A stretch of DNA of 64,000 bases from an uncultured Candidatus Saccharibacteria bacterium (GTDB lineage Bacteria > Patescibacteriota > UBA1384 > JAMDBS01 > DAOVQR01): positions 20,110 through 84,109 of the forward strand of contig CAYZSW010000004.1 in NCBI GenBank assembly GCA_964481135.1, read 5' to 3'. The notes under the pieces were generated by a model. It had not been told where the DNA came from. It searched no databases and saw only the letters and a program-made list of their open reading frames with translations. The translations under genes were made by a program, and so were the position numbers. Positions 6,938-19,584 of the stretch are shown here, piece by piece; the stretch's first letter is position 1; every line of letters begins with the position of its first letter.

Positions 6938-7420
6938 ATGAAAAAAATTACTAAAATATTTCTAATTATTCCATTATTTATTTTTGTATTTTTTGTGTTT
7001 CAAATTACTATTGCTTCAACAAGAAAATCTCCAGAAATTTATTTTACTAATTCAAATGCTACAGACCCGTTTGATAAAAATTTTGAAATATCTGAAATAG
7101 AATATGGAAAGTCATTTAATTTAGTTGGTGAAAATTTTTCTGTAAGCAAAGATGTGCATATATATTTAAATCAAGAATATATTGGTGTAAAAGAAATCGA
7201 GGATGGCAAATTTAGAGGTATTATGAATATTAAACAGGAGGAAGCAGAGAACAAAACATATTCTATAAAAGTTGATGGTGCTGCCAGAGGTGAAACATTG
7301 GAAAAAGAAATTTATGTTAAGTTGCCATCAGTAATTCCTTCTTGGGCATATATAATTGTTGGTCTTATTGTGATTGGCTGTATTGTTTATTTCATCTATC
7401 TAAAAATTTTTCAAGAATAA
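6938..7420 (+). CDS. small secreted protein with C-terminal TM anchor; shares a SPEIYFT-type domain with the C-terminus of the giant protein at 13999-19584
   Basis: Signal/TM at N-terminus, TRKSPEIYFT...IYL...Y.IKV.G.A.GE...IYVKLP, C-terminal hydrophobic helix YIIVGLIVIGCIVYFIYL; RBS aggagga upstream. Confidence 0.6.
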   Translation: MKKITKIFLIIPLFIFVFFVFQITIASTRKSPEIYFTNSNATDPFDKNFEISEIEYGKSFNLVGENFSVSKDVHIYLNQEYIGVKEIEDGKFRGIMNIKQEEAENKTYSIKVDGAARGETLEKEIYVKLPSVIPSWAYIIVGLIVIGCIVYFIYLKIFQE

Positions 7421-7471
7421 ATTATCCACTTTAATTTAAACTTATTTTTTGGTTTAATTAAATTACAAGGA

Positions 7472-16900: not shown

Positions 16901-19584
16901 AGCAATATTCCGACGATCAGTTTGCTAAGGCCAGTCACATAATCTACAATATCAATCAATTAAATTCTGATTGTGCTAATCAAATCATTGATGAAGATAA
17001 GAAATTTATTACTGAAAACAAAGATTATCTTTCCCAAATAAACGATTTTAACTTTTTGCAAGATACCAGTCAAATACCAGAAAACTGGCCTACTGATTTT
17101 TCAAGTAAACTCAAAAAACACGAAGATAAAATAAGTAGTATTGAATACAATTGCCAAGTAAAGAACATTGAGTATATTAAGCAAATCCAAGATATCCAGC
17201 AAGGAAATGATTCGGCATATTTTTCTTCCTTATATCAAACAATAGAAGACTTCTTTAAATCGCTTGTAAATAATCAGGAAGCTATAGATCAAAAAACTGC
17301 TATCTTTGAAGAATTGAAAGCTAATAATTTTATTCCTGGTTTCTTTGAACCTTTTAGTAAAATATCTCATCGTTATAGCTATATAGATGACGGTCAAATA
17401 ATAGAAGATGAGATAACAGATTATGAGTCACGGCCTGACGATAGTATTTCTTTACCAGAAGATATTTCCCAAATTACCTACCACAACCGTCCACTTACAG
17501 AACAAGAGCTAACAGACCTTATCACACTTGAAGATTTCTTCTATCATGCCCAGTATCCAGAACAATTTAGTCCACTAGATGCAGTTGTGTTTGATCATTT
17601 TGAAAACCTAAAAAGATTCTTTAGAGAAAGAAACCAAGAATTTAGAGCCATTTCTGATCCTCGTTTCCCACAACTATATAATATATTAGATGCTTGTGCC
17701 GACAACAACTATCGTCTTCCTCCAAAACCAGTTGATCATTTTGTCGGTCGCTTTCTAGATCAAGAAGAAAAAGACAAGTTTGCTTACGCAAGAGATCTAA
17801 TCATAGAAAGACAATTTAAATATCCAGACATTGAAAGATCAAACGAAATAGATAGTATCATAGAAGATATCCGTAATTACTTTAGGCCAAAAGAACAAGA
17901 ACTACGACAAATTAATGATCCTCACTTTTTCCATTTAGATATTTTAGATGCACTCTTTAACGGCAGACCTCTTAATATGCCTCCAGGGCAATTTGAAAAC
18001 TTTACACACGATAAAGATCAATTAGATAGTATTAGAGGAATGTTTAAAGATGCCAAACATCTTATCTACACAAAACAATCTCAATCACTTACTTTAGATC
18101 AGCAAGCCAATTATGACAAGATCAAAGAATATTTTACATTGGAAGAAGGAATGCTTAGATCTTTGCCTCACGATATTGTAGACCTTAATGTATTAGATGC
18201 CATGCTTTACAATTTACAACTACCTCCCCAGCCATTTTACGAACCAATTGTAGAGTTTTTTGATGGTGTCGGACATTTCTTTGAAGAAAATATATTTCAA
18301 CCAATAGTAGATCTGTTTTTTCCTCCGCATGATATTACCTACCACAACCGCCCACTCACAGAACAAGAACTAACAGACCTTATCACACTTGAAGATTTCT
18401 TCTATCATGCCCAGTATCCAGAACAATTTAGTCCACTAGATGCAGTTGTGTTTGATCATTTTGAAAACCTAAAAAGATTCTTTAGAGAAAGAAACCAAGA
18501 ATTTAGAGCCATTTCTGATCCTCGTTTCCCACAACTATATAATATATTAGATGCTTGTGCCGACAACAACTATCGTCTTCCTCCAAAACCAGTTGATCAT
18601 TTTGTCGGTCGCTTTCTAGATCAAGAAGAAAAAGACAAGTTTGCTTACGCAAGAGATCTAATCATAGAAAGACAATTTAAATATCCAGACATTGAAAGAT
18701 CAAACGAAATAGATAGTATCATAGAAGATATCCGTAATTACTTTAGGCCAAAAGAACAAGAACTACGACAAATTAATGATCCTCACTTTTTCCATTTAGA
18801 TATTTTAGATGCACTCTTTAACGGCAGACCTCTTAATATGCCTCCAGGGCAATTTGAAAACTTTACACACGATAAAGATCAATTAGATAGTATTAGAGGA
18901 ATGTTTAAAGATGCCAAACATCTTATCTACACAAAACAATCTCAATCACTTACTTTAGATCAGCAAGCCAATTATGACAAGATCAAAGAATATTTTACAT
19001 TGGAAGAAGGAATGCTTAGATCTTTGCCTCACGATATTGTAGACCTTAATGTATTAGATGCCATGCTTTACAATTTACAACTACCTCCCCAGCCATTTTA
19101 CGAACCAATTGTAGAGTTTTTTGAAAATTTAATTTCATTTGAAAATATACTTGGTAAGGCATACGCCCAAGACAATACCGAATCCCCAGAAATTTACTTT
19201 ACTCCGATAAATAGTGATACCAATCAGGAAAGTCAGATAGATAAAGCTTTGGTAGGACAAACAGTGGTTATTAATGCTAGAAACTTCAATCAATCTAAAA
19301 ACATCCAAATTTACTTAGATGATACTTTCTTAGAAGATGCCAAGATCTTAGGTGGGGGATTTGGCATAAAAGTAAAAATGCCACTAGATATTAAATCTGG
19401 AAATTACACCATGAAAGTCATTGGAGATGCCCAAGGTGAATATGTGTTTAAAGATATATATATTGAGCATCCTAGAAACTACAATTGGATTTACTATGTT
19501 TTGGCAGTGTTATTTGTACTTGCCCTTGGATTTGTAATCTACAAAACTAAAAACAAAAAACCACAACAAGATGTTGTGATTTAA
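13999..19584 (+). CDS. giant surface protein (1,862 aa): signal peptide, FN3/Ig-like N-terminal region, internal 287-aa tandem duplication, SPEIYFT-type domain and C-terminal TM anchor
   Basis: ATG at 13999 is in frame with the ORF-track start and 8 nt after the upstream stop; signal MKKILSITLFILVFITLTALVKA; C-terminal WIYYVLAVLFVLALGFVIY TM plus basic tail. Confidence 0.7.
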   Translation: MKKILSITLFILVFITLTALVKADTPYPNAPRFSLEYEIGQLIEGNELTEVTLLWHTPENNNRELPYVFTYEIIKKGPGGDDVSFVVNPGKIFGSQDLNIGSFNDPMAVVGDTYTYTLIIRDTSSRLVGKYSVNVSIPMPEPLSYVEEEPEFNRFYLSPYLEEEQLIEFYNSINNKIQNDSEEENQDAIKAEFSIELDGKVVNILLGGFESAVKKNFSEFQKYFESVLKRYELENNYTMSGNLKKYTSVIPSYNYDYDKKSDNNYSMDVFVKPFSFQYGSENTSKYLNMKASYKFKDQDDIKKDFNLYSNLQFSIVPGSNINDSIRYLKSSLYQNELCERNYSLKQIVNSEQKEIENQPYYLESQIKVYSIDSESGEEKKELAYLPINFTLFENIVFAPFAKHYLDEVSRGRGEKKYTYNSEQYYSYTQPYSYLFPEDEVSFKLKITPEMIFRAKDYDGEIGQEDFTNRVQEIGNIENYKFIVEYDKNRFDLMPHSVINSMIQAGGVAYFYEDNPDIGIVELTFDEDSFNKDTLEKHIEFVGTIKAGSADNLFTNQENILEKSSLRFNVKILHSEDNSDNSNIIFEDDTNYLLSNRIFVRLAGHSMENIFIGMMRGNNKVNSWILNTYDDGQKYYTKDHQIYKEIILAPQNLSSEYSIGINPIDAYNLSPVAVRNIKPADLRYSSGIGGYLYDINLTTEEYKNLFASVGRIDSDEKNIYPYNIYYYDFKDQEKSSPIKINTTFYHLNGNKSNFDFSANNGEIFNVTGTLFANNETYIEISAEKNGQPSKQTYKINYGLGLSLASIRFNINVFGYLFDYLSKYASIENMNFTFNEPGEIKHEEISLSPEIDEQEVQESFNKDVNDYIDIAFYESSEEYYKGISKEAEYGNIDTPTLELQKQLDEGSYIQEVKTYLSDIYSEDYLNNQDDFNDFMFLKDDEGNFLLNNEMMNSKIESEQDKISLLDNYSQQYSDDQFAKASHIIYNINQLNSDCANQIIDEDKKFITENKDYLSQINDFNFLQDTSQIPENWPTDFSSKLKKHEDKISSIEYNCQVKNIEYIKQIQDIQQGNDSAYFSSLYQTIEDFFKSLVNNQEAIDQKTAIFEELKANNFIPGFFEPFSKISHRYSYIDDGQIIEDEITDYESRPDDSISLPEDISQITYHNRPLTEQELTDLITLEDFFYHAQYPEQFSPLDAVVFDHFENLKRFFRERNQEFRAISDPRFPQLYNILDACADNNYRLPPKPVDHFVGRFLDQEEKDKFAYARDLIIERQFKYPDIERSNEIDSIIEDIRNYFRPKEQELRQINDPHFFHLDILDALFNGRPLNMPPGQFENFTHDKDQLDSIRGMFKDAKHLIYTKQSQSLTLDQQANYDKIKEYFTLEEGMLRSLPHDIVDLNVLDAMLYNLQLPPQPFYEPIVEFFDGVGHFFEENIFQPIVDLFFPPHDITYHNRPLTEQELTDLITLEDFFYHAQYPEQFSPLDAVVFDHFENLKRFFRERNQEFRAISDPRFPQLYNILDACADNNYRLPPKPVDHFVGRFLDQEEKDKFAYARDLIIERQFKYPDIERSNEIDSIIEDIRNYFRPKEQELRQINDPHFFHLDILDALFNGRPLNMPPGQFENFTHDKDQLDSIRGMFKDAKHLIYTKQSQSLTLDQQANYDKIKEYFTLEEGMLRSLPHDIVDLNVLDAMLYNLQLPPQPFYEPIVEFFENLISFENILGKAYAQDNTESPEIYFTPINSDTNQESQIDKALVGQTVVINARNFNQSKNIQIYLDDTFLEDAKILGGGFGIKVKMPLDIKSGNYTMKVIGDAQGEYVFKDIYIEHPRNYNWIYYVLAVLFVLALGFVIYKTKNKKPQQDVVI
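17473..19131 (+). repeat. near-perfect tandem direct duplication (period 861 bp, 2 copies) inside the giant gene
   Basis: Copy 2 (18334-19131) matches copy 1 (17473-18270) except for a few synonymous differences near the start (ccgtccactt/ccgcccactc, gagcta/gaacta); the protein repeat ITYHNRPLTEQELTDL...PIVEFF is identical. Confidence 0.9.

Follow-up and report, generated by a model that had tools for sequence, protein, structure and literature searches.

Next to a tRNA-Val gene, the window analysed here (the whole stretch of 64,000 nucleotides, or 64 kb, taken from contig CAYZSW010000004.1 of assembly GCA_964481135.1, from an uncultured Candidatus Saccharibacteria bacterium) carries six consecutive genes, g1 to g6, that an earlier note had proposed as a module for attachment to a host cell. 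With a slightly better than even chance, these genes are better described as a locus of two layers, in which a conserved gene, g1, is joined by an accessory, fast-evolving block of surface-protein genes built on a periscope-like giant, g6. The first layer would be g1 within a core neighbourhood, DUF881-DUF881-(AI-2E)-g1-tRNA-Val-DsbA-P-type ATPase, of a Patescibacteria lineage related to class UBA1384, while the second would be a block of 12.4 kb that consists of g2 and a packed g3-g6 unit and encodes extracytoplasmic orphan proteins. Within it, g6 would be held in the membrane by a g1-like module, made up of an immunoglobulin (Ig)-like domain and a transmembrane (TM) segment, and would project a distal binding head on a stalk, the length of which may be adjusted through gain or loss of repeats. 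g3 and g4 would be membrane-embedded partners of the giant, g5 a processing or remodelling protease, and g1 a docking or sibling anchor. The block as a whole would be dispensable and turn over quickly among relatives, as would be expected of surface proteins exposed to hosts, phages or competitors. The features concerned are the following (aa, amino acids):

6938-7420, plus strand: g1, 160 aa; signal peptide, Ig-like beta-sandwich (~7025-7327) and C-terminal TM segment (7352-7408).
7478-7855 (alternative TTG start at 7472), plus strand: g2, 125 aa (127 aa from the TTG); predicted coiled coil.
7935-10343, plus strand: g3, predicted type II membrane protein of 802 aa; TM segment 8061-8117, six-Cys cluster 8697-8903.
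10348-11769, plus strand: g4, 473 aa (468 aa from the ATG at 10363), predicted type II; TM segment 10492-10548, NHL-like blade 10777-10899.
11766-13991, plus strand: g5, 741 aa, predicted to be Sec-secreted; HEYMH 13446-13460, EGLVEY 13545-13562.
13999-19584, plus strand: g6, predicted type I giant of 1,861 aa.
17473-19124, plus strand: duplication inside g6, with copy 1 at 17473-18263 and copy 2 at 18334-19124.
19180-19542, plus strand: C-terminal Ig-like module and TM segment (19486-19542) of g6, paralogue of g1.
19821-19897, minus strand: tRNA-Val(gac), the right-hand edge of the variable block.
20010-21002, minus strand: orf330, predicted type II membrane protein, lineage-restricted, beyond tRNA-Val.

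To judge from gene order in relatives, g2 to g6 form a lineage-restricted block of 12.4 kb that lies between g1 and tRNA-Val. A profile of the module shared by g1 and g6 found two g1 orthologues. The first (P0009, 57-62% identity to g1) is located on a 16.8-kb contig of the metagenome-assembled genome (MAG) CSMAG_1580 (GCA_030628575.1), which a cold-seep catalogue classes as Patescibacteria, class UBA1384, with a completeness of 56% (PMC10491686, supplement). Here, two DUF881 genes are followed by g1, by tRNA-Val(gac) only 8 nt past the g1 stop codon, by a DsbA-like gene and by a P-type ATPase gene. The flanking genes that this contig and the window locus have in common share 38-69% protein identity, and the contig contains none of g2 to g6, no AI-2E gene and no orf330. 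The second orthologue (P0008, 73-81% identity to g1) is encoded on a Logan contig of 1,453 nt (L011), on which AI-2E is 78% identical and the g1 stop codon is directly followed by NIHFILDDKFLEDAKILGGGFGIKLRIPSNTKAGNHTIKLI, a stub of 41 codons with ~75% identity to residues 1768-1808 of g6. The stub has neither a start codon nor the N-terminal half of the module, and the simplest reading is that this lineage underwent a deletion of ~12 kb, with one end just past g1 and the other midway through the anchor module of g6. On this reading, the block would be dispensable and would have been present before the two lineages, whose proteins are only 73-78% identical, diverged; since the ratio of non-synonymous to synonymous substitution rates (dN/dS) of the stub is ~0.2 over 40 codons, the loss appears to have been recent. 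A stretch of ~20 nt after the g1 stop codon is alike (65-75%) in the window (7421-7445), at the L011 junction (1331-1453) and in the "NIQIYLD" region of g6 (~19300-19325), and could represent deletion microhomology or the trace of a more complex history. The clade is sparsely sampled, since a scan of GTDB genomes with a g1 alignment returned CSMAG_1580 only, and a scan of JGI metagenomes with the second DUF881 gene (DUF881b) gave one match at a contig end, which was useless for synteny. At least seven assemblies (NCBI, JGI, ENA and Logan), from several independent metagenomes, contain the organism itself, and the gene order is the same in them.

The alternative that survives best, though decidedly unlikely, is that the block serves the construction or maintenance of the envelope, as an S-layer-like coat or as a wall or division scaffold with g5 as maturation peptidase, instead of contact with a partner cell. 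The neighbours of the block would be consistent with such a function, comprising DUF881 membrane proteins, a DsbA-like oxidoreductase and an AI-2E permease, and the Cys cluster of g3 would suit DsbA-dependent folding. However, one would expect a structural component to be conserved, and in the relatives the block is absent or deleted while the neighbouring core genes are conserved without it; nor was any S-layer, peptidoglycan-binding or division domain detected with Pfam and NCBIfam.

That g1 to g6 are a single co-evolving and co-transcribed host-attachment operon, as proposed in the earlier note, is now very unlikely. The six open reading frames (ORFs) are indeed all co-directional on the plus strand, from the start of g1 at 6938 to the end of g6 at 19584, and the anchor module common to g1 and g6 could mean that the two proteins interact. 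By contrast, g1 persists without g2 to g6 in both related lineages, so that the six-gene module is not co-conserved, which is the outcome that the note itself had named as refuting it. The gaps or overlaps of 4-8 nt that had been described for the whole run exist at g3/g4 (4 nt), g4/g5 (-4 nt) and g5/g6 (7 nt), whereas g1/g2 (51-57 nt) and g2/g3 (79 nt) have wider spacers, which, together with the strong Shine-Dalgarno site of g1 itself, separate g1 and g2 from the rest. Furthermore, the product of g2 is predicted to be cytoplasmic, and the co-directional run is not confined to these genes, but reaches far upstream into housekeeping genes, all genes between 1042 and 19584 being on the plus strand. 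The housekeeping genes of the window include those for RNase Y, YmdB, BipA, ThrRS, PriA and UvrA, the two DUF881 genes, tmRNA and RNase P RNA. Scans for consensus promoters and terminators were uninformative in this AT-rich DNA (G+C of the window ~30%), with 96 promoter-like sites found versus 88 expected. A chance origin of the g3-g6 ORFs is impossible, since for their lengths of 473-1,861 codons the log10 probability of remaining open is -17.7 to -69.5 (random-codon stop probability 0.082).

Little chance is also given to the possibility that an integrative element, i.e. a genomic island or prophage remnant, inserted beside tRNA-Val and that the block represents its decayed cargo. The position beside a tRNA gene hints at a mobile origin: the block borders tRNA-Val at its 3' side and is missing at the corresponding site in the relative, tRNA-like fragments are found on both sides of tRNA-Val, and orf330 on the other side of the tRNA gene is also lineage-restricted. 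The block thus resembles tRNA-adjacent genomic islands in its tRNA adjacency and its presence/absence variation, but differs from them in that an integrase and att repeats are lacking and its composition does not deviate. Searches of the block with Pfam, NCBIfam and PHROGs gave no integrase, recombinase or other mobility gene, nor was a capsid, terminase or conjugation gene found in it, and there are no direct repeats at the block ends and no att-like repeat of the tRNA-like fragment. The codon-usage distance of g3-g6 is 0.052-0.085, compared with 0.075 +/- 0.018 for resident genes, and the G+C content at third codon positions (GC3) is 0.18-0.22, compared with 0.178 +/- 0.028. Likewise, no match was obtained when g3 and g6 were compared by tblastn with 50,697 phage records, or when IMG/VR was scanned with g6. 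Because mobility genes, end repeats and phage similarity were not found and codon usage and GC3 are native, a recent mobile-element origin is unsupported, and the L011 stub sets the block before the split described above.

The tRNA-like fragments lie on the minus strand (19700-19945), where a 5' fragment, GGACGAC-TA-GCTC-AATTGGTTA, is situated just upstream of tRNA-Val, and GTCGTCC-ACCA, a perfect 7-bp acceptor-stem complement followed by ACCA, is found ~110 nt downstream of it. The minimum free energy fold pairs both fragments around tRNA-Val, with a z score of -1.7 that is not significant. ARAGORN with introns allowed reported tRNA-Val only and no split tRNA, and Rfam gave only the tRNA and its antisense artefacts in the spacer between g6 and the tRNA gene. 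A further relative (L008) retains just a degenerate 5' tRNA-like fragment. The fragments may be what is left of a disrupted tRNA, or else of a former integration site. The product of orf330, which lies between tRNA-Val and the DsbA-like gene, has no Pfam match and resembles g3 and g4 in that an N/Q-rich cytoplasmic tail (30-48 aa) is followed by a single TM segment.

As the conserved part of the locus, g1 is a core gene that encodes a small type I single-pass membrane protein with one Ig-like ectodomain. The AlphaFold2 (AF2) model of g1 is an Ig-like sandwich, and with a dN/dS of 0.13-0.19 the gene is under purifying selection. By tblastn and blastp, residues 30-154 are paralogous to residues 1728-1848 at the C-terminal end of g6 (30% identity over 125 aa, E 1e-11), and the motif SPEIYFT, which is invariant or nearly so among the g1 orthologues, opens both modules, the coding 23-mers (7026-7048 and 19181-19203) being 91% identical in DNA. 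SPEIYFT may mark a site of functional importance where the mature ectodomain begins, or alternatively a local gene-conversion tract. The FN3/Ig-like ectodomains described in the earlier note are thereby narrowed to the Ig-like C-terminal module of g6, for which the assignment comes from its homology to g1.

The layout of g6 comprises, from the N terminus, a signal peptide, a head of ~850 aa, an acidic low-complexity spacer (~870-1150), six repeats of ~90 aa, the Ig-like module and the TM segment. Each of the two duplicated copies contains three diverged units of ~90 aa (units A versus B: E 2e-6, 32% identity), while the copies themselves extend over 791 nt with a period of 861 nt and differ at three nucleotides, the three-unit set having been duplicated recently. 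The two-copy form of 1,861 aa is present in the window and thus the NCBI assembly, and a one-copy form of 1,574 aa (P0005), with one composite repeat of 287 aa and an A-to-S change, occurs in a JGI/ENA assembly. A Logan contig (L001) breaks at 17538, which is the entry to the repeat, as expected if the sample carries two copies. Neither Pfam nor NCBIfam recognised a domain in g6, whether the whole protein was searched at E<=1 or segments at E<=10, so that no recognised adhesive domain is present, and g6 had no match in the PDB.

This arrangement resembles two known classes of surface proteins, although what defines them is either missing from g6 or only tentatively recognised in it. As in fibrillar adhesins (Monzon & Bateman; bioRxiv 10.1101/2020.12.07.414375 / PMC8286594; PMC9210967), a long anchored single chain would have a large distal region separated from the anchor by tandem repeats, and like them g6 changes quickly in evolution and easily escapes homology searches. 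By contrast, g6 has no known adhesive or stalk domain and only six repeats, and its anchor, as predicted from hydropathy, is the Ig-like and TM module instead of an LPXTG or secretion-system signal. With periscope proteins (PMC9704523), g6 shares highly identical tandem DNA repeats, together with a predicted surface anchor, and its repeat number differs between assemblies (1,861 versus 1,574 aa), which may however reflect short-read collapse. It differs from them in that its composite unit of 287 aa occurs just once or twice.

Topology was read from hydropathy for all six products. Sec-type signal peptides (KK, a hydrophobic core and V/T-x-A) are recognisable on g1, g5 and g6, none of them with a lipobox Cys, and N-terminal anchors behind N/Q-rich tails are seen in g3 and g4, while g1 and g6 have C-terminal anchors. 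This supports a predicted envelope location for five of the six products, whereas the exception, g2, has no hydrophobic segment, so that the signal peptide or TM anchor that had been ascribed to every product holds for g1 and g3-g6. As had also been claimed, the proteins belong to no named family: no significant family was found for any of the six in Pfam, NCBIfam, PHROGs and PADLOC, apart from coiled-coil noise for g2, and the same four collections revealed no hallmark ATPase, pilin, secretin or defence protein among g1-g6. Nine excised sub-domains, searched against Pfam at E<=10, gave nothing but sub-threshold WD40/NHL matches for g4. Similarly, sequence searches of the PDB with g3, g4, g5, g6, the motif region of g5, a profile of the g6 repeats and a profile of the g1 module returned a single NHL-like blade of g4. 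When ~15 billion sequences are clustered at 90% identity, each of the six proteins stands alone or groups only with itself. Homologues of g5 were sought through a word index and by scanning 1.84 billion representative proteins exhaustively with HMMER, both of which found only g5 itself. For g3, the word index was searched with a concatenated g3+g4 query, which returned only the entry of g3 and not that of g4, even though the 468-aa form of g4 is in the collection, and is therefore uninformative for g4; word-index searches with long low-complexity queries can thus miss even identical sequences. g5 is an orphan after exhaustive search, while for g3, g4 and g6 no relative was found in shallower searches. 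Elsewhere in the window (59435-61384, plus strand), a 649-aa protein with a signal peptide has no Pfam match at E<=1e-5 and an N terminus that is beta-rich and Ig-like in appearance, and is unrelated in sequence to the block.

In g3, the N/Q-rich cytoplasmic tail and the TM segment precede a large ectodomain in which six Cys are clustered at residues 255-323. With 1.5% Cys compared with 1.0% in neighbouring genes, the term "Cys-rich" fits the protein poorly apart from this cluster; no family or PDB match was found for g3. The ectodomain of g4 is possibly a beta-propeller. Residues 144-184 align to one NHL blade of Pizza/PknD chains with a per-stretch E of ~9-30, while the E of 9e-9 for the whole-sequence PDB match overstates the similarity, since the blade occurs six times in the target, and Pfam NHL reached only E=0.14, which is under the 20-bit cut-off. 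Among proteins with NHL propellers, which include the PknD sensor domain (PDB 1rwi) and the designed Pizza proteins, g4 would be like PknD in being a single-pass membrane protein with an extracytoplasmic beta-rich domain, but it differs in having a single recognisable blade and no kinase or other cytoplasmic domain. The propeller likeness suggested in the earlier note thus extends to one blade, and the PEGA likeness found no support, since the PEGA hidden Markov model (HMM; PF08308) gave no match at E<=10 even when residues 69-145 of g4 were scanned alone.

The HEXXH motif reported before was confirmed as HEYMH at residues 561-565 of g5 and is followed by AEGLVEY, 29 residues past the second His. 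When g5 is shuffled, 1.3% of the resulting sequences contain HEXXH by chance, and for the pool of all six proteins the figure is 7.7%. The pair of HEXXH and an EGLVEY-type element, a pattern defined post hoc, was seen in one of 300,000 shuffles. The EGLVEY element is similar to "NEGFA.Y", which bears the Glu in MA(E) gluzincins, among which family M1 has the signature "HEXXH-X18-E" with NEGFA. g5 is like the MA(E) gluzincins in its HEXXH, its downstream Glu motif and its predicted secretion, but differs from them in a spacing unlike that of M1 and in that neither HMM nor PDB searches gave a match, even at E<=10. It may therefore be regarded as a candidate gluzincin-like protease. That the block serves extracellular nutrient scavenging, with g5 as a secreted metalloprotease and the other surface proteins as binders of substrates, is highly doubtful. 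The HEXXH...EGLVEY pair and signal peptide of g5 and the reliance of Patescibacteria on external building blocks (reviewed in PMC11665869) would fit, but the zincin call is motif-based with no PDB or Pfam match, Pfam detected no transporter or binding-protein family in the block, and an anchored repeat protein of 1,861 aa is atypical for substrate capture.

The first gene of the block, g2, is predicted to encode a cytoplasmic coiled-coil protein with neither signal peptide nor TM segment. When positions 1-17420 of the window were compared with one ENA contig, five differences were found in all, every one within 23 nt of g2 (7556-7578), resulting in M29F, N36S and two synonymous changes, and the identical five changes are present on two JGI contigs, i.e. 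in three other assemblies including that of ENA. g2 is thus the sole polymorphic spot in an otherwise clonal region of ~17.4 kb. Furthermore, Logan contigs of three samples stop at 7527 and resume at 7811, both inside g2, which together with the nucleotide differences points to several alleles or to a paralogous copy elsewhere in the genome. The polymorphism may be due to paralogue-driven conversion or to selection. A diversity-generating retroelement acting on g2 was considered and rejected, the changes not being adenine-specific and no reverse transcriptase being nearby.

Several points weigh against the two-layer reading. No binding, adhesive or catalytic domain was identified in any of the g1-g6 products. 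The single-sequence AF2 model of g5 is unusable, with a predicted local distance difference test (pLDDT) score of 34.7, so that its zincin call comes from motifs. The exhaustive homologue search covered g5 alone, while g3 was searched in the word index, and g6 was compared with viral and phage collections and looked up among the clusters. The one-copy form of g6 could be a true copy-number variant or a repeat collapsed by short-read assembly. As to the relatives, the absence of the block from CSMAG_1580 refers to a single contig of 16.8 kb from a MAG with a completeness of 56%, and the deletion is seen on a single Logan contig of 1,453 nt. Finally, g3 to g6 probably form one transcript, as read from their spacing alone.

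Patescibacteria are thought to live attached to other microbes, and outside the type IV pili of Saccharibacteria the molecules that mediate this contact are largely unknown (PMC11623550, PMC11665869). A more far-reaching possibility, which is unlikely, is that g3-g6 constitute an undescribed, self-contained UBA1384-type apparatus, in which a length-adjustable g6 fibre, docking via a g1-type module, would act with two anchored partners and a new family of secreted gluzincins to attach to or breach a host cell. If this were true, the g3-g6 proteins would all be founding members of new families. The idea of a novel surface-protein locus survives, as an unproven one, and such a locus would not be unusual for Patescibacteria. 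The locus provides a bounded candidate in a barely studied class, comprising four orphan envelope proteins, presence/absence variants, a repeat-length variant and a conserved paralogous anchor, and illustrates how surface kits beside a tRNA gene may be rapidly gained, lost and remodelled. On present evidence it is another lineage-specific orphan surface cluster, the value of which lies in being a target for structure prediction and metatranscriptomics.

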